From: Robiginitomaculum sp.
GTDB lineage: Bacteria > Pseudomonadota > Alphaproteobacteria > Caulobacterales > Maricaulaceae
Direction of reading: 5' to 3'
Assembly: GCA_015485335.1 (NCBI GenBank)
Contig: WFTT01000102.1
Span: 25,583-89,582, forward strand
Length of the DNA stretch: 64,000 nucleotides
In this document: in pieces, positions 1-47,492 of the stretch
Position numbering within the stretch: position 1 is the stretch's first letter
How the letters are laid out: each line of letters opens with the position of its first letter
Program-made: the position numbers and the translations under genes
The notes under the pieces: generated by a model
What the model was told of the DNA's origin: nothing
Seen by the model: only the letters and a program-made list of their open reading frames with translations
Database searches by the model: none

Positions 1-1802
1 CGCGCCTGGGGGCGTCCACGCTGTTGATCAGTCCTAGCCGTGATAATTTTGGCCAAATGTCGTGCAATCCGGCCATTGGCGGCATTGGTAAGGGCCATTT
101 GGTGCGCGAAGTGGATGCACTGGATGGCCTGATGGGCAAGGCGGCAGATGCTTCGGGCATACAGTTTCGCCTGCTTAATCGCAGCAAGGGTCCGGCGGTG
201 CAGGGTCCGCGCACCCAATCTGACCGCAAGCTTTATCAGGCAGCGATGGCCGGATTGATCGACGAGCAGGAAAATCTGACGACTTGCGAAGACCGGGTCG
301 AAGATATTGAAATCCGAGATAATAAGGTTGAAGCTGTTTTGTGCGCCAGTGGTACGCGCTATGCTTGCGCTGCCCTGGTGCTGACCACCGGTACGTTCTT
401 GAACGGGGTTATTCATCGCGGCGCAGAACAGGAAGCGGCCGGCCGTTTTGGCGAGGCCCCCTCCATAGGGCTGGCCAAAACCCTGGCGGCGCTGAACCTG
501 CCTATGGGCCGGCTTAAAACCGGCACGCCGGCGCGCCTTGAGAAAGACAGCATAGATTGGGACGCGCTGGAAATGCAGGCTGCAGACGAGCACCCGGTGC
601 CACTGTCCTTTTTGACCGAGGCCATTACCGTGCCGCAAATCGCCTGCGGGATTAGCTGGACCAACCCTCGGACCCACAAGATTATTGCTGAAAACCTTGC
701 TCTTTCGGCCATGCATGCGGGCAATATCAGCGGGACGGGGCCACGCTATTGTCCCTCCATTGAGGATAAAATCTCCCGTTTTGCCGACAAGTCTGGCCAC
801 CAGGTGTTTTTAGAACCCGAAGGGCTGGACAGTTCGCTGGTTTACCCCAACGGCATTTCTACCTCTCTGCCAGCTGAAGTACAGGATCAGTTTTTGCGCA
901 CCATGGATGGTATGAAAAACGTCCGGGTACATCGTTATGGCTATGCCATAGAATATGACTATGTGGATCCACGGGCCCTGAAAGCCAGCCTGCAGGTAAA
1001 ATCGGTCACCGGGCTTTATCTGGCCGGTCAAATCAATGGCACCACCGGTTATGAAGAAGCCGCGGCGCAAGGCCTGCTCGCGGGCCTGAACGCAGCGCTT
1101 TATGCCGCCGGGGGGGCATCTGCGTTTGTGCCTGATCGCAGCGAGGCTTATCTGGGCGTGATGGTCGACGATTTGACCAGCCATGGGGTTAGCGAGCCAT
1201 ATCGCATGTACACGTCGCGTGCCGAATATCGTCTCAGCCTGCGGGCCGATAATGCAGATCAGCGCCTGACGCCCATAGGGCTGGCCCTGGGGTGTATTGG
1301 CCGGGAGCGTAAAACCGCCTTTGAGCAAAAAAGCAAAGCCCTTAAGGCGGCACGCGCTTTGGCCCATCAGTGCCAGAAAACCCCGCAGGAGCTGGAAAAG
1401 GTTGGCATCAAGGTCAATCAGGACGGGGCGCGGCGCACGCCTTTGGACATTTTGGCCTATCCAGACAAGGATTGGGATGATGTCATCCGGGCCTGGCCAT
1501 CCATGGGTTCGATAGATCCAAAAATTGCCGAACAATTGGCCATTGATGCCCGTTATGCCGGGTATCTGGAACGCCAGCAACGAGATGTAAAACGTTTTAA
1601 ACGCGAAGAGCACCAGCGCCTTCCCGAAGGCATTGATTATCACCAGATCTCTGGGCTTTCCAACGAAGCCAGGGAAAAGCTGACTCAGGCCCAACCGGAA
1701 ACCCTTGGCCAGGCGGGTCGTCTGGAAGGGGTTTCACCCGGGGCCATTGCGCTGTTGTCGCATTATGTAAAACGCACCAATCAGCAAAAAGCGCGGGCCT
1801 GA
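1..1802 (+). CDS. mnmG: tRNA uridine 5-carboxymethylaminomethyl modification enzyme MnmG (GidA), 5' end cut by window edge
   Basis: The frame is open from base 3 ([42 protein letters not shown]). The translation shows typical MnmG core and C-terminal helices. rsmG-parA-parB follow directly. Confidence 0.95.
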
Positions 1803-1809
1803 GCGGGCC

Positions 1810-2454
1810 ATGTCGGATACCCAAATTCCAAACTCAAAAGGCCGCGATAATTTTGCCCGCCATATGGATGTTTCACGTGAAACACTGGCGCGTTTTTCTT
1901 GCTGGCATGAGCTTTTGTGTAAATGGTCCCAAAAAATCAATTTGGTGGCGCCGGGCACCTTGCCCGCCTTTTGGACCCGCCATGCCCTGGACAGCGCCCA
2001 ATTGGCCGCACTTGTACCCAAAGAGGCCAAAAGGCTGATCGACCTTGGTTCAGGCGCGGGCTTTCCCGGTCTGGCCATCGCGTTGATGCGCATGGAAAAC
2101 CAACCGGTGCAGGTAACCTTGGTGGAATCAAATGCCAAAAAGGCTGCTTTTTTGCGGGTTTGCATCAAAGAAACCGGCGCGCCAGCCGAAGTGATCTGCG
2201 CCCGCTCTGAATCATTGCCCCCACAGGCCTATGATGTCATAACGGCCAGAGCGTTGGCGCCATTACCGCGTTTGCTGGCATTAAGTGCGCCCTTTGTCGG
2301 GCCACAAACCTTGCAATTGTTTCCCAAGGGCGCCGAAGTGAAAACAGAAATAAGCGAAGCGTGCAAAGATTGGGCGCTGGCCTATGAAACCATACCAAGC
2401 ATGACGGAAAAGGCCGCCAGTATTTTGAAAATCAGGAAAGCCCACCGTGTCTAG
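1810..2454 (+). CDS. rsmG: 16S rRNA (guanine527-N7)-methyltransferase RsmG (GidB)
   Basis: 214 aa with the SAM-binding motif IDLGSGAGFPGLAIA. The VSRET segment carries parS. Canonical position after mnmG. Confidence 0.9.
   Translation: MSDTQIPNSKGRDNFARHMDVSRETLARFSCWHELLCKWSQKINLVAPGTLPAFWTRHALDSAQLAALVPKEAKRLIDLGSGAGFPGLAIALMRMENQPVQVTLVESNAKKAAFLRVCIKETGAPAEVICARSESLPPQAYDVITARALAPLPRLLALSAPFVGPQTLQLFPKGAEVKTEISEACKDWALAYETIPSMTEKAASILKIRKAHRV
1869..1884. promoter_or_regulatory. parS centromere site, perfect 16-bp palindrome TGTTTCACGTGAAACA
   Basis: Exact match to the canonical parS consensus, read directly in the sequence. It lies inside rsmG, about 1.4 kb upstream of parB. Confidence 0.85.
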
Positions 2455-3250
2455 TTCGCCAGCAGGTCTTCGTATTATTGCGGTTGCCAACCAAAAGGGC
2501 GGGGTGGGCAAAACCACCACCACGATAAATTTGGCTACGGCCCTGTGCGCCATTGGTAAAAAAACCCTGATATTGGATCTGGACCCCCAGGGCAATGCCT
2601 CCACCGGGTTGGGTGTGGATCATGCATCACGCCATACCACCACCTATGACGTGGTGGTTGGCAAGGTGCCCTTGTTAAAATCCATTATCCACACCAAGGT
2701 GCCGGGGCTTCATATTGCGCCAGCCGAGGCAGATCTGGCTGGGGCAGAGCTGGAGCTAGCCAATGTTTCACGGCGTTCCCACCGGCTTAAAGATGCGCTG
2801 GAAGATTTGAAGAAAAACAGTGATTACGAATATGTGCTGATTGACTGTCCGCCATCGCTAAACGTGCTAACGGTCAATGCCCTGACGGCCGCCGATGCCT
2901 TGCTGGTGCCTTTGCAATGTGAGTTTTTTGCCCTGGAAGGCCTTAGTCAGCTTTTGCGCACCGTAGATCTGGTCAAGGTTAATCTTAACCCTCGTCTGGA
3001 AATTCAGGGTCTGGTACTGACCATGTATGATCCGCGCAATAATTTATCCAAACAGGTATCCGAAGATGTGCGCAAGCATTTTGGTGACAAGGTTTATGAG
3101 ACCGTGATCCCACGCAATGTCCGGGTTTCCGAGGCGCCGTCCTATGGTAAACCGGCCCTGATTTATGACCACATGTGTGCCGGCAGTCAGGCCTATATGA
3201 AACTGGCCAGCGAAGTGATCCGCCGCGAAAATAAAGTGAGAGCATTATGA
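2447..3250 (+). CDS. parA: chromosome partitioning ATPase ParA
   Basis: Deviant Walker A motif NQKGGVGKTTTTINLA. 267 aa. Overlaps the rsmG stop and is followed by parB. Confidence 0.93.
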   Translation: MSSSPAGLRIIAVANQKGGVGKTTTTINLATALCAIGKKTLILDLDPQGNASTGLGVDHASRHTTTYDVVVGKVPLLKSIIHTKVPGLHIAPAEADLAGAELELANVSRRSHRLKDALEDLKKNSDYEYVLIDCPPSLNVLTVNALTAADALLVPLQCEFFALEGLSQLLRTVDLVKVNLNPRLEIQGLVLTMYDPRNNLSKQVSEDVRKHFGDKVYETVIPRNVRVSEAPSYGKPALIYDHMCAGSQAYMKLASEVIRRENKVRAL

Positions 3251-4128
3251 GTGAGCATCCCAAGGGACAACGGTTAGGGCGCGGTTTGTCCGCCTTGCTG
3301 GGTGAGACAGAGCCGGCGGAAAACGTTGCGCCGAACATGAACCAGGACAATCGCGTTCCCATTGAATCTCTCAGCCGCAATCCGGACCAACCCCGGCGGC
3401 GGTTTGATGAAGAGGCTATGGAGGAGCTGACGCGCTCGATTGCGGAAAAAGGGGTGTTGCAACCCATTATTGTTCGTCCCATTCCCGGTGGTGGCGGTTA
3501 TCAGATTGTTGCCGGCGAGCGCCGTTGGCGTGCCGCGCAACGGGCGGGCCTGCACGAAGTGCCCGTGGTTGCGCGAGACCTGTCTGATCGCGAAGTGATG
3601 GAAATTGCGCTGGTGGAAAATATCCAGCGGACGGATCTGGATCCCATCGAAGAGGCCCGCGGATTTTCGGTGCTGTCTGAACAGTTCAATCATACCCAGG
3701 AAGACATTGCCCGGGTGGTTGGAAAAAGCCGTGCCGCCATTGCCAATGCCATTCGCCTTCTTGGTTTGCCTTCATCGGTACAGGAAATGATTTGTGATGG
3801 CCGGTTAAGCGCTGGACATGGGCGGGCGCTGATTAACACGCCAAACCCTGAAGAAATGGCGGCCCGGGTGGCGGCCCAGGGTCTTAATGTCCGCCAGACC
3901 GAAGAATTGGCCCGCCAGGCCAGTGCCGCCCCGGAAACCAAAGGCCGGTCGGGCAAATCCACCCATGGTAAGGACCCCGATACACTAGCATTAGAAGAAG
4001 ACCTGACCCGGCGTCTGGGTCTGGCGGTGTCGATAAGCTCGCGCGCCAATGGTTCTGGTCAGTTACAGATTAATTTCAGCACACTGGAACAGTTGGACGA
4101 CCTGTGCCGTCGCCTGACTCAGGACTGA
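3247..4128 (+). CDS. parB: chromosome partitioning protein ParB
   Basis: ParB box IVAGERRWRAAQRAGL and LVENIQRTDL, plus an HTH region. Its ATG overlaps the parA stop (ATGA). Confidence 0.93.
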   Translation: MSEHPKGQRLGRGLSALLGETEPAENVAPNMNQDNRVPIESLSRNPDQPRRRFDEEAMEELTRSIAEKGVLQPIIVRPIPGGGGYQIVAGERRWRAAQRAGLHEVPVVARDLSDREVMEIALVENIQRTDLDPIEEARGFSVLSEQFNHTQEDIARVVGKSRAAIANAIRLLGLPSSVQEMICDGRLSAGHGRALINTPNPEEMAARVAAQGLNVRQTEELARQASAAPETKGRSGKSTHGKDPDTLALEEDLTRRLGLAVSISSRANGSGQLQINFSTLEQLDDLCRRLTQD

Positions 4129-5185: not shown

Positions 5186-5682
5186 CGCTCTTCCGGAAGG
5201 TTGGCAAAGAATACCGCCAGATCATTCATGACTTTTTCTGCCAGGACCAGCGCCGCAGTTTCTTCGGCGTGCTGTTCGGCGGCAATGGCGCCATAAGGTT
5301 GATCCGGAACATCAAAGGCAGCTTCGCTAATGGCATTGCCCTTATAGGCAATTTTGCCGTCACGATCGCGAACCGTATAGCGCGCCCGCAGCGTCAGTCG
5401 CGCCCGGGTGGAAACATCATCAATCCGCACACCGACATTGGCTTGGGTTTTTCGTAAATTTGTTTCCAGTACATAGGTGCCGGACTGGCCCGTCTGAATG
5501 CCGCCGCGATCTTGTAGAGCCTGGGCAAACAAAAAGCCGGCACGGCTTTCAACCGGGGCCAGGCTCAGATTTTCAAAGCTGCGCCGTACCGCGGTGTTTT
5601 CCCCATATAAGGGTTGAAAACCGGCACAGGCCGACAGCAAAATCAGCAGGCAGGCAGACAAACTGTATTGAAAAAATCTCAT
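5182..5682 (-). CDS. lptE: LPS-assembly lipoprotein LptE
   Basis: Lipobox LLSAC after the signal peptide. 166 aa. Located between leuS and holA with 4-nt overlaps. Confidence 0.75.
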   Translation of the reverse strand: MRFFQYSLSACLLILLSACAGFQPLYGENTAVRRSFENLSLAPVESRAGFLFAQALQDRGGIQTGQSGTYVLETNLRKTQANVGVRIDDVSTRARLTLRARYTVRDRDGKIAYKGNAISEAAFDVPDQPYGAIAAEQHAEETAALVLAEKVMNDLAVFFANLPEER

Positions 5683-8725: not shown

Positions 8726-9173
8726 AGATTTTCTCCGTATGAAACGGCAGGTTTGCCGTGAACATAATTCGACCGCGTGTATACCATGCTGATCCGTCTA
8801 GGCCAGTCTTGCTTTACAGGCCGGACGCGTATTTTCGCGGACTTCTCCAAAAACATTTGTTGCTCTTGGGCCACAATATCAAAGAAGCACAAGATCAGGG
8901 TCTATTTTTTCTTGACCCTGATTGTCCCATCGTCCATGGAAAATGCTGGCGTCCGGGGGATGGGGCTGCTCGCGGCCGGTCACAGTCAGTTCGTAATCAG
9001 AGGATTACGGCGCTGTGACCGGATCGCAGCTCACCTCTAGGCATCTATGTGAGCAGGTACTAAATTAAGTAGGGTTCTTTCAGGCATTAATATAATCTTG
9101 ATGGAATCCAGTTAGAATGCACCAGTATTGATTATGGTGGTGCCCAAGGGACGAGCAGGGATCTGATCAAAGC

Positions 9174-9608
9174 ATGAAGCGCATGCAGTCCATATTGGCC
9201 GTTTTGGCCTTTTCGGTTTTCGCCGGGCCCGTTATGTCCGACGAAGTTACTGGTGTGCGCGCTGCGGATTCATCTTTACCCTGGAACCGCGCCTTTACCG
9301 TTCGGGATGAAAGCCGCGATGACAGTCGCTCGGTTGTGCCAATTCGCACACCGGGGGTTGCTATTCCCGCCAGCAGCAAATGGGGCGTGACGGTAAACTT
9401 TGATATCAAAGACAGCGCCTATGAAAATATGGACCGCATGAGCGCCGGTGCCTATTTTGATCTCAGTCCCCGCATTCGCCTTGGCGGCAGCCTCAGCTTT
9501 GGGGCACCGGGGGATCTGCGTATCTCCACACCCAACGATCGGGTGCTGCCCTCGCTTTCCAGCGAAAAAGATTCGGCGATCCGGATCGAATCCTCCATTA
9601 AATTCTGA
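9174..9608 (+). CDS. hypothetical secreted protein
   Basis: 144-aa ORF with an N-terminal signal peptide (MKRMQSILAVLAFSVFAGPVMS). I do not recognise a family. Confidence 0.5.
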   Translation: MKRMQSILAVLAFSVFAGPVMSDEVTGVRAADSSLPWNRAFTVRDESRDDSRSVVPIRTPGVAIPASSKWGVTVNFDIKDSAYENMDRMSAGAYFDLSPRIRLGGSLSFGAPGDLRISTPNDRVLPSLSSEKDSAIRIESSIKF

Positions 9609-9629
9609 TTTAAGCCCCGTATTCAGGCG

Positions 9630-10598
9630 CTATGGGCTGTTCGCAGCGCGTAATAGCGGTGCCTCTGTCGCAGGACTATGGTTATCAAACGGGTTTGCCG
9701 GCAGATCATCTTTTGGTAACTGAATGTCTTTTGTGTCCTGGGAAAGGGGCTGTGCGATCTGGCTTTTACAGATTGACGAAAGCCTGGCCCCCATGCGCCA
9801 CCGATCCCGGTAACGGTTTATCAGCCCGGTAAACACCAACAATACCAAAACGGGCGCATACCAGCACAAGACTGCGCCGTGGGCGCTGCCAAATCCAAAC
9901 AGGCGGGTTTTCAGGATAAACAGCAACAGGGCAAAAACCGGTACAGTCAGGAACCGCAAGGACCGGGACCATAAAATCAGGACCAGAATGAAGGCGGCCA
10001 CATATAAAATAGCACCATGATCCTGCAGGGATCCAAAAGAGGCAGACGTCTGGACTGTCCAGGCTGGCATGGGCAGCCAGCCAAATGCCGCATTCAAAGC
10101 CGGAGAGACCGTATCCCACAGGGGACGCAGGGGCGAAAACAGGCGTGCCTCTGTATCGGATATGAAACTGGCGATCTGGCGGGCAAAATAACCGCGTTCG
10201 GTAATAATGGCGGCGATGCTGAGAAAAACAAAGCTGATCCACCAATATAAAGAGCGGCAAATCCCGGCTTTTTTCAGCAAGGTCTGTAAAGGTTCCACAC
10301 GCTGGCGCTCTCGCTGGGTGCGGTTGATCACGGCGGCCAGGATTTCAGGCTTGTTTTTGCCTCGGCTGAGTAAAACCTGCGTAATGACATCGCCGGGCTG
10401 GCAATGAATGTTCCATTGTGCCGCATCGGCGACACAAACAGAGCCATCCTTAAACCTCAGTTCCAGCTTTTTGGTTTCGCCGGCCTGGTCCTGTGCATCC
10501 GTAGTCGGCACCGCCACAACCCCATCGCGCAAAGCATAGTGTACTTTGCGGCGACCATATTTTTGTTTGCTTAGATGTTGTGATAGCCCGCTCATCAT
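9630..10598 (-). CDS. hypothetical membrane protein (soluble N-terminal domain plus about 5 TM segments)
   Basis: 322-aa ORF with several hydrophobic helices after residue ~105. I do not recognise a family. Confidence 0.55.
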   Translation of the reverse strand: MMSGLSQHLSKQKYGRRKVHYALRDGVVAVPTTDAQDQAGETKKLELRFKDGSVCVADAAQWNIHCQPGDVITQVLLSRGKNKPEILAAVINRTQRERQRVEPLQTLLKKAGICRSLYWWISFVFLSIAAIITERGYFARQIASFISDTEARLFSPLRPLWDTVSPALNAAFGWLPMPAWTVQTSASFGSLQDHGAILYVAAFILVLILWSRSLRFLTVPVFALLLFILKTRLFGFGSAHGAVLCWYAPVLVLLVFTGLINRYRDRWRMGARLSSICKSQIAQPLSQDTKDIQLPKDDLPANPFDNHSPATEAPLLRAANSP

Positions 10599-26418: not shown

Positions 26419-27921
26419 ATGACCTATTCTTCCTTAAGAGATTATCTGGCCTCCCTAGAGCCGGACGGGCTGTATCAACGCGTGACCGAGCCGGTTTCCA
26501 CCGATTTGGAACTTACTGAAATTGGTTGTCGGCTGATCCGCAAAGGTGGCCCGGCGGTGCTGTTCGAGAACGTACAGACCGAGACGGGCGCCGCGGCCGA
26601 TATGCCGGTGCTGATCAATCTTTTTGGCACGGTTGAACGTGTGGCTCGCGGCGTCACTATGGGCAATAAAGAGCGTCGCACCGCCGCCGATCTGCGCGAA
26701 GTGGGCGAATTGCTGGCCTTTATGCGACAGCCAGAGCCGCCGCGCGGTGTTGGCGAGGCCCTTAAACTGGCCCCTCTTATCAAGACGGTAATGGCCATGC
26801 GGCCAAAAATTGTGCGCAAGGCCCCCTGTCAGGAAGTGGTATTAAAAGGCAAGGACGCCTCGCTGGACCGCCTGCCGATCCAGACCTGTTGGCCGGGCGA
26901 GCCGGCGCCCCTGATTACCTGGCCGCTGGTGGTGACCAAAGGGCCGGGCAAGGCCGCCGAGGACAATACCAATCTTGGTATTTATCGCATGCAAAAACTG
27001 GGGCCCCATAAAACGATTATGCGCTGGTTGGCCCATCGCGGCGGGGCGCAGCAATTTGCACGCTTTAAAGCGGCCAATCCCGGCAAGCCCATGCCACTGG
27101 CCGCGGTCATCGGTGCCGACCCCGGCACCATTTTGGCAGCCGTAACCCCGGTGCCCGATACCTTGTCCGAGTATCAGTTTGCTGGTCTGTTGCGCGGTAA
27201 AAAGGCCGAACTGGTAAAGTGCAAAACCATTGATCTGCATGTGCCCGCCGAGGCCGAAATCGTTATCGAGGGCCATGTTTTGCCTGACGAGACCGCACTT
27301 GAGGGCCCGTATGGCGACCATACCGGCTATTATAACTCGGTCGAAGAGTTTCCGGTCTTTGAGATCAGCGCCATCACCATGCGCGAAGATCCAATGTATC
27401 TTTCAACCTATACCGGCCGTCCGCCGGACGAGCCCAGTGTTTTGGGCGAGGCATTGAACGAGGTGTTTATCCCGCTGCTGCAACAGCAATTTCCCGAAAT
27501 TATTGATTTTTGGCTGCCACCCGAGGCGTGCTCCTATCGCATTGCGGTGATCTCCATGAAAAAGGCCTATGCGGGCCATGCCAAGCGGGTGATGATGGGG
27601 GCGTGGTCATATTTACGCCAATTCACCTATACCAAATGGCTGATCATTGTTGATGACGACATCAATGCTCGGGACTGGAAAGACGTGATGTGGGCCATCT
27701 CCACCCGCATGGATCCGGCGCGCGATTGCGTCACCGTGGAAAACACGCCCATTGATTATCTGGACTTTGCTTCGCCGGTTTCCGGGCTTGGCTCGAAAAT
27801 GGGCTTGGATGCCACCAATAAATGGCCGGGCGAAACCGTGCGCGAATGGGGCCGCAAGATTGAAATGGACGAGGCCGTTATCGTCGCGGTGACAGAAAAA
27901 TGGGACCGACTAGGCCTGTGA
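26419..27921 (+). CDS. ubiD: UbiD-family decarboxylase (4-hydroxy-3-polyprenylbenzoate decarboxylase-like)
   Basis: 500 aa. N-terminus LRDYLASLE...; blocks [16 protein letters not shown] and [11 protein letters not shown]. Confidence 0.92.
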
Positions 27922-44520: not shown

Positions 44521-44937
44521 TTAACCACCGGTGATTTTTTCATAAAACCCCAATAGCGGCAGGGACAGATAGGCGGCGGTAAAGCCAACCACCCATAAAC
44601 CAGCCGCAATAATGAACAACCGCCGGTTCCACCTGTCTGCACTTTCACATTGTGCCACCAATACTGGATCAGTAGGACAGGCGCGCCCGGGTCGGTAAAG
44701 GGCCCAGGCGGCCAAGGCAAGCAAAAGGGCGCTACCGGAAAACAGCCAGAGTTTGTGATGCGCCAGCGTCACCAGAAACGGAAAATTTGAAAACATGGCG
44801 GCGGAAACCGCACCAAAGCCCAGCGCCACCAGCATAATTGGCAAGGCACAGCAAAGAAGCGTGGTGGTTGAGGTAAACAACAACAACCAACCCCACTTTT
44901 TTTGTTGTACTGCTATGGCTTTTTCCGATGTCGTCAC
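44521..44937 (-). CDS. MerT-like heavy-metal transport membrane protein
   Basis: 138 aa with 3-4 TM segments. Vicinal Cys pair in TM1 (TTLLCCALPIMLVALGFG) and a second Cys pair (CPTDPVLVAQC). ATGA overlap with the upstream HMA gene. Confidence 0.6.
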   Translation of the reverse strand: MTTSEKAIAVQQKKWGWLLLFTSTTTLLCCALPIMLVALGFGAVSAAMFSNFPFLVTLAHHKLWLFSGSALLLALAAWALYRPGRACPTDPVLVAQCESADRWNRRLFIIAAGLWVVGFTAAYLSLPLLGFYEKITGG

Positions 44938-45272
44938 CCTGTCGTATCCTCATTCTTTTTTGTAAAATCACTGGCTGAACAGGTTTCGGTTTTTGTCATG
45001 GAGCGATAGGTAAAGCCTTTATCCAGAAACATGGCTTTAAGCTGGTCATCGGTGAAGTTGACGGAACCGTCGGTGCAGACGTTAATCACACCGCTTTCAA
45101 AATTGGCATTGGCCGCCTTAACACCTTTGATCTTTTTTAGGGCTTTTTCAGAGGTGGCCACACAGAACGGACAGGTCATGCCATCAACCTGAAGTTTGTA
45201 TTCTGTTTCAGCGGCCAAAGCAGACCCGGCCAGCATGGCAAGGCCCAAAGATAGAGTAAGCGTTTTGAACAT
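44934..45272 (-). CDS. periplasmic heavy-metal-associated (HMA, MerP/CopZ-like) protein
   Basis: Signal peptide followed by the GMTCPFC metal-binding motif in a ferredoxin-like HMA domain. 112 aa. Confidence 0.85.
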   Translation of the reverse strand: MFKTLTLSLGLAMLAGSALAAETEYKLQVDGMTCPFCVATSEKALKKIKGVKAANANFESGVINVCTDGSVNFTDDQLKAMFLDKGFTYRSMTKTETCSASDFTKKNEDTTG

Positions 45273-45286
45273 TGCGTTCTCCTTTT

Positions 45287-46141
45287 TTAGAAATTAAAAC
45301 GAAGGCTGGTGACCAGGGAATAATCCGGCGCCAGTGCGGTACCGTGAAGATCATTCACCACGGGAATTTTTAAGGCCGTTTCCGCAATCCATCGTTTGGT
45401 GGCATATTGTAAACCCGGCGACAGAAAGGCCTGTGTGCCGCCGGAATTGGGATTAATGACGCCGCTCAGCCTATCTCTTTGCAATTGCGTGACATTGGCT
45501 TCCAGCACCCCATAAAGGAAGGCGTCAGAGTTGGCGGCGATGGTTTTGGGCAACAGCCGGTATTGTAGCGAGGCATCGGCGCTGATCGTATCGCCGCGTT
45601 CAAAACCGTTGGCGCGGGTATTGGCGACATATTTGATCTGGCTGTCAAAATTCCAGTTTGTGCTGGCGGCGGTAAAGATAAGACCGGCAAAGCCATCGGT
45701 TGAACCATCCCCGGTTTTGCCGGTTCTGCCCGTGGGCAAGGTGGCACCGGCAAACGGGGCAATCCGAATGGTTTTCCCGGGGCTATCATTGCGATAAATT
45801 TCATAGCGGGCAAATATGGTGGCATCGCCAAGTCCGGTGAAGTTACTGTTCATCGAGCCAATTTCACGATCAATATTAACCAAGGGCGCAACTCCGAACA
45901 GCGCCAACTTTGGCGTGACGCCATAGCCCAGCACCGAAACCCCGGCGCGCACCGTGACATCGCGCTTCATACCATTCAGACGATCGGACAGATTGGTTAC
46001 AATAAATTGCTGACGTGCCAACAATTCTCCCTTGCTGACCGGCAGCGCCGTATTAAAGGTAATGGGGGCGGCCAACGCCGTTCCTGAAGTCGCCATGAGC
46101 AGACCAAGTATGCAAGCGGTCTGGATACTCATTTTCATCAT
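45287..46141 (-). CDS. outer-membrane beta-barrel channel (MetA-pathway/'transporter' family-like)
   Basis: Signal peptide (..TSGTALA). Alternating beta-strand pattern. C-terminal SLRFNF with a terminal Phe, typical of OMPs. 284 aa. Confidence 0.65.
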   Translation of the reverse strand: MMKMSIQTACILGLLMATSGTALAAPITFNTALPVSKGELLARQQFIVTNLSDRLNGMKRDVTVRAGVSVLGYGVTPKLALFGVAPLVNIDREIGSMNSNFTGLGDATIFARYEIYRNDSPGKTIRIAPFAGATLPTGRTGKTGDGSTDGFAGLIFTAASTNWNFDSQIKYVANTRANGFERGDTISADASLQYRLLPKTIAANSDAFLYGVLEANVTQLQRDRLSGVINPNSGGTQAFLSPGLQYATKRWIAETALKIPVVNDLHGTALAPDYSLVTSLRFNF

Positions 46142-46177
46142 GATTTAACCTTGCCTTGTTTTTGAAACCTGAGCCAG

Positions 46178-46208
46178 TGTATAAGGCCTGTAGTAACTAT
46201 AGGCTCAA
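46178..46208 (-). promoter_or_regulatory. MerR-type promoter/operator: TTGAGC, 19-bp spacer, TATACA, with dyad CCTATAG-TTA-CTACAGG
   Basis: Read on the minus strand. The 19-bp spacer is the hallmark of MerR-activated promoters. The imperfect 7-3-7 dyad sits in the spacer, 37-67 bp upstream of the OM-channel gene and immediately upstream of the divergent merR-family gene. Confidence 0.6.
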
Positions 46209-46218
46209 GGCTTTTATC

Positions 46219-46638
46219 ATGACCTCACACACACGTGATTTTTATATTGGTGAGGTTGCCAAACTGACCGGGGTAAAAATTGAAACCATTCGGTATTATG
46301 AAAAGGCGGGTATTCTGACATCGCCTGACAGAGGGAAAAACGGTTATCGTCTTTATGCAAAGGCGCACATTGAGCGCCTGATGTTCGTTAAGCGGTGTCG
46401 AGCACTGGGATTCAGCCTCTCTCAGACCCTCTCTTTGCTCAATATGGCAAATTCAGAAGGCCGCACCTGTCAGCAAATCAGCCAAAAGGCTGAGAAGCAA
46501 TTAGAGGACGTGCGCGCAAAGATTGAAGACCTGAAGCGAATGGAGGATGTGCTGTCTGCCTATGTTAATGCCTGTCCGCGCGATGCCAGCAAGGATTGCC
46601 CGATTGTTACCGCCTTGTCGGATGTGCCGGCGCTTTAA
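46219..46638 (+). CDS. MerR-family metal-responsive transcriptional regulator (three-Cys, CadR/PbrR/MerR-like)
   Basis: Start trimmed to MTSHTRDFYIGEVAKLTGVKIETIRYYEKAGIL (MerR HTH). Coiled-coil dimerisation helix. Cys84 plus a C119-x7-C127 loop. Confidence 0.9.
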   Translation: MTSHTRDFYIGEVAKLTGVKIETIRYYEKAGILTSPDRGKNGYRLYAKAHIERLMFVKRCRALGFSLSQTLSLLNMANSEGRTCQQISQKAEKQLEDVRAKIEDLKRMEDVLSAYVNACPRDASKDCPIVTALSDVPAL

Positions 46639-47492
46639 AGCGCCGCTTTGGTTAAGAGCCTCAGCGCCTCTTCATGCACCCGGGCATCGCCACTGGCCAG
46701 TACCTGCCCGCCTTGCCAGGCAGGCCTGCCGGACCAATTGGTGACCCTGCCGCCAGCTCCCTCGACAATGGGGATCAGCGCCGCAATATCATAATCCTGA
46801 AGGCCGGATTCAATCACCAGATCAACGCCGCCGCGCGCCAGCGCCGCATAGGCGTAACAATCCAGGCCATAGCGTTGCAGCCGCGTCTTTTTGCGTAACG
46901 TGTCAAATGCCGGGCGTTCTTCTTGGGTGAAAAGGTGGGGGTCGGTAGTGCAAAGGGTTGCCGCATGCAGACCTTCGCAGGGCCGCACGCTTAGGGCCCT
47001 TTGTTGCTGGCCGTTTTTATACAGCCAGGCCGTATCGCCCAGTCCAAAAAACCGCTCGCCGGTTACTGGCTGGTCCATAATGCCCAGAACGGGCCGCGTA
47101 TTACGGGTCAGTGCAATCAATGTGCCCCAGACCGGCAAAGCGCTGATGAAAGCGCGGGTGCCATCAATGGGATCTAGAACCCAGTGAAAATCGCCCTTGG
47201 TGTCTTTAACGCCATATTCTTCGCCGCGAATGCCGTGATCGGGGTAACGGGCATCAAGCAAGTCCCGAATGGCGCGTTCCGCCCCCCGGTCCGCGATGGT
47301 CACCGGGTCATAGCCGCTGGGGTGATCCGGTTTGACCTCAACCCCGATGGGGGTATCAAAATGTGCCAGGGTTACGGCCATGGCGGCATCGGCCAGGGCA
47401 AAGGAAAAGCGGCCAAAGGCGGCGCGCTCTTCCTCGCCAAGAAGGCGTGGCAGGTCAGAAGAGGTATTTTGGCATATCGGTGTTTTTGACAT
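46635..47492 (-). CDS. inositol monophosphatase-family protein (possibly histidinol-phosphatase HisN type)
   Basis: WVLDPIDGTRAF and the downstream WD-like metal motifs of the IMPase fold. 285 aa. Confidence 0.82.
   Translation of the reverse strand: MSKTPICQNTSSDLPRLLGEEERAAFGRFSFALADAAMAVTLAHFDTPIGVEVKPDHPSGYDPVTIADRGAERAIRDLLDARYPDHGIRGEEYGVKDTKGDFHWVLDPIDGTRAFISALPVWGTLIALTRNTRPVLGIMDQPVTGERFFGLGDTAWLYKNGQQQRALSVRPCEGLHAATLCTTDPHLFTQEERPAFDTLRKKTRLQRYGLDCYAYAALARGGVDLVIESGLQDYDIAALIPIVEGAGGRVTNWSGRPAWQGGQVLASGDARVHEEALRLLTKAAL

Follow-up and report, generated by a model that had tools for sequence, protein, structure and literature searches.

What could a cell do with a metal-inducible import system when nothing that disposes of the metal is encoded nearby? 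The question is raised by a gene cluster in a 64-kb stretch of DNA from Robiginitomaculum sp. (GenBank assembly GCA_015485335.1, contig WFTT01000102.1, positions 25,583 to 89,582 of the forward strand), referred to here as the window; GC content, open reading frame (ORF) and motif figures for the window refer to these 64 kb. In this cluster, a MerR-family regulator gene is divergent from an operon for an outer-membrane protein (OMP), a protein with a heavy-metal-associated (HMA) domain, and a MerT-like inner-membrane protein. Here, we describe this set of genes as a module that works like the transport half of a mer operon, has its own outer-membrane channel, is usually free of a reductase, and has been rewired to several metal sensors. 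With moderate confidence, we propose that the cassette would act as a metal-induced thiol relay through three compartments for a soft metal, most likely Hg(II) in the window. The lack of a detoxifier in the window is a genuine puzzle, which an unlinked merA may resolve.

The gene cluster and its missing detoxifier

An earlier interpretation of the letters alone (the sequence-only reading) had described four ORFs with their cysteine motifs, signal peptides and a tight divergent layout, all of which were found in place.

44521–44937, minus strand: MerT-like gene, 138 amino acids (aa), last in the three-gene operon
44934–45272, minus strand: HMA gene, 112 aa, with GMTCPFC, second in the operon
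45287–46141, minus strand: OMP (barrel) gene, 284 aa, C-terminal RFNF, first in the operon
46178–46208, minus strand: MerR-type promoter/operator of the three-gene operon, within a 77-bp gap
46219–46638, plus strand: MerR-family regulator gene, 139 aa from ATG, divergent from the operon

The length of the regulator is counted from the ATG; the mechanically called ORF begins upstream, with a TTG at 46156. The HMA and OMP genes are separated by 14 nt. The overlap between the HMA and MerT-like genes, given earlier as ATGA, is GTGA, with the GTG start of the MerT-like gene lying over the TGA stop of the HMA gene. The motif and ORF survey of the window agrees with the earlier statement that no reductase or efflux pump is nearby. 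The DKTGT motif of P-type ATPases and the motifs of MerA and multicopper oxidases were found in no frame of the window, and the search for MerA gave no GGTCVNVGC, no C-terminal CC motif, and no ORF of a pyridine-nucleotide disulfide reductase.

A widespread cassette under purifying selection

A pattern and tblastn scan for the MerT-like gene in a set of 185,579 species, with one genome per species, gave 321 loci, which are cited by number (L001 and so on) where they must be told apart. Neighborhood counts refer to the best 80 of the 321 loci, with flanks fetched up to 6 kb; almost all of these are metagenome-assembled genomes (MAGs) of marine Alpha- and Gammaproteobacteria. Gene presence was scored by combining tblastn with ORF clustering within 1.8 kb of the MerT-like gene. 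The barrel gene was found in 72 of the 80 loci, the HMA gene in 76, and both in 71; three of the nine loci without the full trio end at a contig edge. The commonest order is OMP–HMA–MerT-like, and some gammaproteobacterial loci have HMA–OMP–MerT-like or MerT-like–HMA–OMP. This neighborhood mining, proposed in the sequence-only reading, thus shows a recurrent cassette where that reading had seen one unexplained cluster; the lack of a local detoxifier that it had pointed out stands. The databases label the cassette genes as "hypothetical", "transporter", "mercuric ion transport protein" or "MetA-pathway of phenol degradation". Cassettes that differ clearly in their identity to that of the window can come from a single MAG (L017 and L037 from one, L040 and L068 from another).

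Homologous clusters that always carried merA or an ATPase would, according to the sequence-only reading, have counted against it, and this is not what the loci show. In the flanks of the 80 loci, a true MerA (ending in LSCCAG) was found in six, a CopA-type multicopper oxidase in seven, a Cu-type P1B-ATPase in six, and a CusA-like resistance-nodulation-division (RND) pump in five. Only 20 of the loci carry any of these detoxifiers (13 of the 38 with at least 4 kb on both sides), and 60 carry none. The ratio of nonsynonymous to synonymous divergence (dN/dS) of all four genes against three syntenic loci without merA (L001–L003) is 0.08–0.18 at dS values of 0.5–1.5, which rules out both a decaying remnant and a very recent insertion. 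The trio is therefore a self-contained, widespread cassette under purifying selection.

These data bear on one explanation of the missing merA, namely that a canonical mer operon has decayed here and left a cluster without present function. In its favor, the trio is joined to merR-merC-merA in L004, and only a 63-codon remnant of the OMP gene is left next to the canonical merTPA of L009. In the window, however, the four ORFs are intact, and the promoter dyad described below is conserved with compensatory changes. The regulator is only 41% identical to that of L004 and the arrangement differs, indicating that the window locus is not a simple deletion derivative of the L004 type. Because 60 of the 80 loci have no detoxifier in the fetched flanks and the loci without merA are under purifying selection, we regard a decayed canonical operon as very improbable.

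A MerR-type promoter that probably controls the operon

On the operon strand, the gap between the regulator and OMP genes contains a promoter with −35 (TTGAGC, 46203–46208) and −10 (TATACA, 46178–46183) elements separated by a 19-nt spacer. A 19-bp dyad, GCCTATAGT-T-ACTACAGGC (46186–46204), covers the end of the −35 element and most of the spacer. Promoters of metal-sensing MerR-family regulators are characterized by a spacer of 19 bp that contains a dyad (PMC3431237). The gap was aligned with those of five loci (L001, L002, L003, L006, and L012; three from Robiginitomaculum, one from Hyphococcus, and one from Parvularculaceae), whose regulators are 58–88% identical to that of the window. The −35 element, the spacing, the −10 element and the dyad are all kept. 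The dyad is perfect in L002 and L006, and the outer two half-site positions covary by symmetric compensatory changes (GCC..GGC versus GTC..GAC).

An ordinary promoter scan of the 77-bp gap with spacers of 16–18 nt gave nothing; such a standard scan is blind to 19-nt spacers. An exact-seed search for inverted repeats also missed the imperfect dyad, which was revealed by the alignment of orthologous promoters. The operator core CTRTAG-N3-CTAYAG has a single match in the window, at this promoter. The CueR box CCTTCC-N7-GGAAGG is absent from the promoter, and its only matches in the window, at 26450 and 35522, have two mismatches each. Because the gap holds a 19-bp-spacer promoter with a conserved dyad and no ordinary promoter, the prediction that the divergent regulator controls the three-gene operon is well supported. 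The control logic of the sequence-only reading, a MerR-family sensor driving the trio, is retained here.

The regulator and the metal it may sense

The regulator contains the cysteines C60, C84, C119, and C127, and both direct reading and alignment bear out the three-Cys arrangement noted earlier (C84 with a C119-x7-C127 loop). The earlier contrast with CueR, which lacks the first of these cysteines, also holds, since C84 aligns with Ser77 of CueR and with a Cys of MerR. A Cys at the Ser77 position of CueR marks sensors of +2 ions (PMC3431237). C84, C119, and C127 align with the cysteines of the Tn501 and Bacillus MerR proteins; the metal loop is one residue shorter (C-x7-C, NACPRDASKDCPIV, versus C-x8-C in MerR). 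The Pfam models MerR_1, MerR, and MerR-DNA-bind all score above cutoff. The equivalog thresholds of both MerR (TIGR02051, 126 bits versus 150.85) and CueR (TIGR02044, 125.2 bits versus 147.4) are missed. The best PDB matches are CueR (1q05), which is the top match, and MerR (4ua1 and 5crl). In the regulator comparison, CadR and PbrR score 84 and 76 bits, respectively, versus 96–100 bits for MerR and CueR. As to the features expected of CueR (Ser77, a two-Cys loop and a CCTTCC-N7-GGAAGG operator), position 77 is Cys and the box is absent; the loop is CueR-like.

The orthologue group of the regulator is tight, with 27 clusters at an identity of at least 60%, after which identity falls to 44–54%. 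The three next-nearest paralogues (44–50% identity) were examined, and all three are divergent from mer genes. The first lies beside merB with merF and an HMA gene, the second beside a merA-merT-HMA operon with merB nearby, and the third beside merB alone. C84, C119, C127, and P128 are invariant in the orthologues and in the paralogues adjoining merB or merA. These results favor a MerR-family metal-sensing activator that is probably of the Hg type, as judged by its nearest relatives.

The most informative locus in this respect is that of a congeneric Robiginitomaculum MAG (L004), whose OMP and MerT-like protein are 79% and 72% identical to those of the window. In this locus, merA (ending in LSCCAG) and merC are divergent from a three-Cys merR, which is followed by the trio; in front of the trio lies another copy of the operator, in a separate promoter with a 19-nt spacer. 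Among the fetched loci, the CTRTAG-N3-CTAYAG core precedes merC-merA in L004 and merT-merP-merA in L009. The paralogues on mer loci, the invariant C84, C119, and C127, the operator core shared with merA promoters and the linkage in L004 together favor Hg(II) as the metal to which the sensor of the window would respond. A caveat is that its operator half-site resembles CTAGAG, the half-site of the PbrR operator as read from primer sequences (PMC3431237). Two earlier statements are modified by these findings. Metal specificity, which had been left undefined, is indeed not fixed for the cassette, but Hg(II) is favored for the window. The absence of a detoxifier is true in the window, but in the congeneric L004 the trio is physically joined to merC-merA. 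The absence may therefore hold only locally, and an unlinked merA is conceivable.

In other loci, the cassette is placed under different sensors. A CCTTCC-N7-GGAAGG box before the barrel gene and a CueR-type regulator occur in L013, L022, L030, L046, L048, and L058; position 77 of these six regulators is Ser in five and Asn in one. A ZntR-like box, CTGGAG-N4-CTCCAG, occurs in four or five cassette loci. Read directly, the Escherichia coli promoters PcopA and PzntA match the CCTTCC and CTGGAG boxes, respectively. Because CueR-type and ZntR-like boxes precede it elsewhere, the cassette is not tied to one metal.

The cassette of the window might likewise handle Cu(I), Ag(I), or Au(I), or divalent Cd, Pb, or Zn, with a regulator that is CueR-like or CadR/PbrR-like and in which the third Cys is incidental. 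The top PDB match, the length and sequence of the loop, and the near-equal scores for CueR and MerR (125 and 126 bits) would fit this reading, as would the six loci under CueR boxes, the seven, six, and five loci in which a CopA oxidase, a Cu-type P1B-ATPase, and a CusA-like RND pump, respectively, adjoin the cassette, and a related MerT-HMA fusion in a copper island of Vibrio plasmids. It is opposed by the invariant Cys of the orthologue group at the Ser77 equivalent, by the lack of a CCTTCC-N7-GGAAGG box in the promoter, and by the genes regulated by the paralogues, which in three of three cases are merB or merA loci and not copA, cadA, or pbr. The similarity of the PbrR half-site is set against the lower scores of CadR and PbrR, and the operator core is common to true merA promoters. 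On balance, a metal other than mercury appears unlikely for the window.

The HMA and MerT-like proteins are relatives of MerP and MerT

The HMA protein scores above the cutoff of PF00403 (33.7 bits), as expected from the earlier assignment, and far below that of the MerP model TIGR02052 (37.8 versus 92.55 bits), in which the true MerP of L067 reaches 101 bits. Its N-terminal signal-like sequence ends in ALA-AE, and GMTCPFC is kept in 30 orthologues. Four cysteines are conserved in this family, the CxxC pair together with C66 and C98, and the latter two set the protein apart from MerP and CopZ. We predict that it is a periplasmic metallochaperone.

The MerT-like protein misses the cutoffs of PF02411 (20.1 versus 32.9 bits) and NF010314 (21.1 versus 150 bits). 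Within its family, 23 of 27 members match PF02411 at E ≤ 0.01, with a best value of 7e-6, and hhalign aligns the family profile with canonical MerT over 66 columns, from the first transmembrane helix (TM1) to the start of the loop (93.8%, E = 1.7e-7). This alignment pairs the two adjacent TM1 cysteines and the first loop Cys with their counterparts in MerT. C29, C30, P33, C87, P88, and C97 are invariant in the 27 sequences, within the motifs LLCCALPI in the first helix and RPGRxCP...C in the Arg-rich loop before the third helix. The loop pair is spaced C87-x9-C97, compared with x5 in the canonical MerT alignment, and by the positive-inside rule this TM2–TM3 pair would be cytoplasmic. The AlphaFold2 model, with a predicted local distance difference test score (pLDDT) of 74.7, has helices at residues 5–38, 62–81, and 91–136; a Foldseek search with it gave no match at E < 1. 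A profile search of 1.84 billion representatives returned only 726 MerT-like clusters at E ≤ 0.001, indicating a small separate family and not mainstream MerT. The assignment to MerT made in the sequence-only reading thus stands as far as the CC and loop Cys pairs and the remote homology are concerned, and the same is true of the MerP-like assignment; by the curated equivalog thresholds of NF010314 and TIGR02052, neither protein is a member. On sequence criteria, the two are best described as relatives of MerT and MerP. A role of the MerT-like protein as a thiol-disulfide electron conduit of the DsbD or CcdA type was also considered and was dropped, as there was no homology signal at all.

In the plasmid collection, only two distant relatives were found, both MerT-HMA fusions on Vibrio plasmids. 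They are 50% identical to the MerT-like protein of the window and sit in a copper island. On the Vibrio alginolyticus plasmid NZ_CP119336.1 (L081, 8763–9695), the tblastn match (9001–9360) starts 164 bp before the annotated coding sequence (9165–9695, "heavy metal-associated domain-containing protein") and follows a "GDCCVxC domain-containing (seleno)protein"; the island contains copA/copB, a P-type ATPase and cusRS-like genes. The arrangement in L081 resembles a MerT-HMA fusion that lacks annotation at its 5′ end, possibly through an in-frame TGA (selenocysteine).

The outer-membrane barrel is a COG4313 channel

The beta-barrel call of the sequence-only reading is confirmed. The OMP has a signal peptide, ends in RFNF, and scores 45.8 bits against PF13557 (Phenol_MetA_deg), above the gathering score of 22. 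Its AlphaFold2 model, built on an alignment of 35 homologues (pLDDT 85.5), is a 12-stranded beta-barrel. A Foldseek search with the model gave the COG4313 channel Pput2725 (4rl8) as the top match by TM-score (0.72–0.76, about 15% identity) and the 12-stranded FapF as the top match by E-value (5e-10); a sequence search of the PDB gave no meaningful match. The OMP is thus a bona fide member of the COG4313/Phenol_MetA_deg family. Invariant residues in the 35 homologues are concentrated in the N-terminal segment and the C-terminus, and the best-conserved stretch, residues 24–39, lies just after the signal peptide. In sequence position, it matches the N-terminal segment that occludes the lumen of Pput2725 (PMC4493636).

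Some loci deviate in their barrel genes. In L037/L039, L062, L063, and L071, one MerT-like gene has two different OMP–HMA pairs on its flanks; of the two barrels, one shares about 42–46% identity with that of the window and the other about 26–30%. This arrangement points to two routes, for entry or for exit, with a common inner-membrane component. In L009, a Marinicaulis MAG, the barrel is reduced to its 63-codon remnant (5322–5671; tblastn match 5456–5644, 42% identity), which lies between the HMA gene and merR. On the opposite side of merR is a canonical merT-merP-merA, and a copper island with an extracytoplasmic function sigma factor, CopA oxidase, CopB, and a P1B-ATPase lies downstream. 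L009 is apparently a natural loss of the OMP.

Proposed relay and the direction of transport

Here, we propose how the cassette may work. When metal binds to the three-Cys regulator on the dyad in the 19-bp-spacer promoter, the OMP–HMA–MerT-like operon would be switched on. The COG4313-type barrel would admit the metal species through the outer membrane, and the periplasmic HMA protein would catch the metal on its CxxC and pass it to the TM1 CC pair of the MerT-like protein, which would move it on to its cytoplasmic Cys pair. The final acceptor in the cytoplasm would be MerA where it is present, as in loci of the L004 type, and otherwise thiol buffers or an unlinked reductase. Another plausible cytoplasmic acceptor is a thioredoxin-fold CxxC protein of 90–96 aa, which lies between the cassette and the regulator in nine, mostly gammaproteobacterial, loci (L061, L062, L066, L067, L068, L070, L071, L077, and L079); it resembles the MJ0307 family (56 bits, below cutoff). 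We infer the identity of the metal, its conduction by the barrel, its cytoplasmic fate, and, by analogy with MerP and MerT, the inward direction, which the thioredoxin-fold protein also suggests.

In five of these nine loci, the regulator belongs to a two-Cys class (NLCxGxxxGCPII) with neither Cys nor Ser at the position of CueR residue 77, and three of the five (L062, L067, and L068) also have ZntR-like operators.

Several points weigh against the inward Hg(II) relay. The direction of transport is set by analogy alone, and the HMA and MerT-like proteins lie far below the curated MerP and MerT thresholds. L009, L062, and L067 have canonical MerT and MerP in addition to the trio, which argues against the trio being a simple replacement or functional equivalent of them. 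With MerA, MerB, and efflux genes absent from the window, an induced importer would have no visible sink. The loop of the regulator is as near to that of CueR as to that of MerR, CueR being the best PDB match, and the loci with CueR boxes (six) and ZntR-like boxes (four or five) indicate that the cassette as such is not Hg-specific. Cys is absent from the mature barrel and Met and His are scarce in it, and characterized COG4313 channels carry hydrophobic organics and not ions (PMC4493636).

The route might also run outward or end in the periplasm, such that the HMA protein scavenges Hg(II) or Cu(I) and the barrel releases it outside, which would give resistance independent of reductase and pump; in a variant, the HMA protein is possibly fed from the cytoplasm through the Cys relay of the MerT-like protein. 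Induction by MerR-family activators of three kinds follows the logic of resistance and not of nutrient uptake, and most loci have no cytoplasmic detoxifier nearby, both of which would suit this route; yet the conserved trio also has no component for energy coupling (an ATPase, RND, or other pump driven by the proton-motive force). Hg(II) and Cu(I) are bound very tightly by cytoplasmic thiols, and on this general ground thermodynamics disfavors a passive flow outward. OMP and HMA genes occur as pairs, and doubled in L037, L062, L063, and L071, which suggests a specific hand-off from chaperone to barrel, as in CusF-CusCBA. At the inner membrane, the sole precedent based on homology, MerT, is an importer. 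The precedent at the outer membrane is divided, since copper efflux has been reported for the channel PcoB of Caulobacter (PMC12509749) and uptake for that of E. coli (PMC9210255). Taken together, we consider the outward or periplasmic route unlikely, and we prefer the inward relay.

A bolder version, which we think doubtful at best, is that a passive Cys relay from the MerT-like protein through the HMA protein to the barrel forms a defense against soft metals that needs neither reductase nor pump, and that expels, or sequesters without an enzyme, Hg(II), organomercury, or neutral Hg-chloride. The latter two cargoes are considered because COG4313 barrels prefer hydrophobic substrates. If this were true, mercury would for the first time be seen to be handled by a system that has an outer-membrane component of its own and lacks MerA, and one system would be plugged into Hg-, Cu-, or Zn-type sensors across marine lineages.

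Comparison with known systems

The cassette most closely recalls the canonical mer operon of Tn501 and Tn21. Both have a divergently transcribed MerR-family activator with three Cys, a promoter whose 19-bp spacer contains a dyad, an HMA protein with a signal peptide and GMTCxxC, and a three-helix inner-membrane protein that has a TM1 CC pair, a TM2–TM3 Cys pair and homology to the MerT profile. Unlike the canonical operon, the window has no merA, and its first operon gene encodes a barrel; to our knowledge, no described mer operon has an outer-membrane barrel. The proteins also differ in their scores (21 versus 150 bits for the MerT-like protein and 38 versus 92.55 bits for the HMA protein), in the loop cysteines (x9 instead of x5), in the two additional conserved cysteines of the HMA protein, and in the C-x7-C instead of C-x8-C loop of the regulator.

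With the COG4313 channels (Pput2725 [4rl8], TcpY, and SphA), the OMP shares the Pfam match, a 12-stranded barrel of the same size and the conserved segment before strand 1. Known members are implicated in the uptake of hydrophobic organic compounds, such as trichlorophenol and sphingosine (PMC4493636), whereas the subfamily of the window is tied to metal-thiolate proteins through a shared operon that is controlled by metal sensors. In the literature searched, no paper linked COG4313 or Phenol_MetA_deg barrels to metals, and none described this cassette.

The Pco/Cop copper systems also have a metal-induced outer-membrane barrel (PcoB/CopB) in a resistance locus, and opposite directions of transport have been reported for it, as described above. 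The trio lies beside a CopA oxidase in seven loci, and beside CopB too in at least L009. The barrel families are unrelated, however, the core of the trio has no multicopper oxidase, and the partners of its barrel, the HMA and MerT-like proteins, are Cys-based and not Met/His-based. A membrane part of the MerT type coupled to an HMA domain is also known from NF045683 ("MerT/CopZ fusion-like heavy metal transport selenoprotein") and from MerTP fusions, and the Vibrio plasmid relatives are of this kind. The MerT-like protein of the window does not match NF045683; its HMA partner is separate and secreted, an OMP gene is present, and there is no selenocysteine.

Flanking genes, base composition and other observations

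As proposed earlier, the metal cluster is flanked by a lysophospholipase-L2-like hydrolase and a protein of the inositol monophosphatase (IMPase) fold, which is the histidinol-phosphatase HisN (TIGR02067, 293 bits, above cutoff). The large ORFs of the window are housekeeping genes (MnmG, LeuRS, ClpB, LepA, UbiD, PhoD, and TypA). The GC content of 44521–46638 is 0.508, compared with 0.553 for the window, and is among the lowest 3% (19 of 619 windows of equal size are lower). The z-scores of GC at third codon positions are −3.1 for the HMA gene and −2.7 for the regulator gene. The impression of an AT-richer cluster therefore holds in the window calculation, and the difference is modest. It had been taken as a hint of horizontal acquisition, which we consider weak; the lower GC is set against the hydrolase and HisN flanks, which are identical in three other Robiginitomaculum genomes (L001–L003). 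A recent acquisition was downgraded for the same reason.

A GC-rich hairpin (CGGCGCTTTAAAGCGCCG, 46628–46645) is located where the convergent regulator (46638) and HisN (46635) genes stop, and it is a possible bidirectional terminator. At the other end of the window, MnmG (GidA; 24–1802, confirmed by Pfam) is followed by three co-directional ORFs, all within 24–4128, whose size and position fit RsmG, ParA, and ParB. If this is right, the window begins near the chromosomal replication origin, with the metal cluster about 45 kb away.

Two other types of protein were seen near the cassette in other loci. A conserved membrane protein of about 130–148 aa with the motif C-x5-RRC-x4-HC (e.g. GFACTLNARRCRRRHCYYSGP) is encoded in L009 (2255–2692), L031 (2072–2461), and L061 (5712–6158). 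It adjoins a true merA in L009 and L061 and has no NCBIfam match, and may thus far have gone undescribed as a membrane protein associated with mer genes. Small proteins with a signal peptide and a high content of Cys, Met, and Asp are encoded directly upstream of the cassette in L042 (4219–4605), L076 (131–502), and L073 (4188–4682), and the same type occurs in L034, L047, L049, L054, L055, and L065. These loci are gammaproteobacterial, and the proteins form three related clusters without a family match. They may represent a fourth, periplasmic metal-binding component of the gammaproteobacterial subtype.

Implications for metal handling in marine bacteria

Schemes of Hg and Cu handling in Gram-negative bacteria usually show no step dedicated to the outer membrane, and the crossing is generally ascribed to unspecified porins. 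A COG4313 barrel joined to MerP-like and MerT-like proteins would fill this gap at the outer membrane, and the cassette would give the COG4313 channels their first link to metals. It would also provide a further marker by which the cycling of Hg and Cu could be followed in ocean metagenomes. Because the cassette mostly occurs without merA and has been rewired to three classes of MerR-family sensors, it raises the question of the direction and purpose of the transport, and makes both directly testable.

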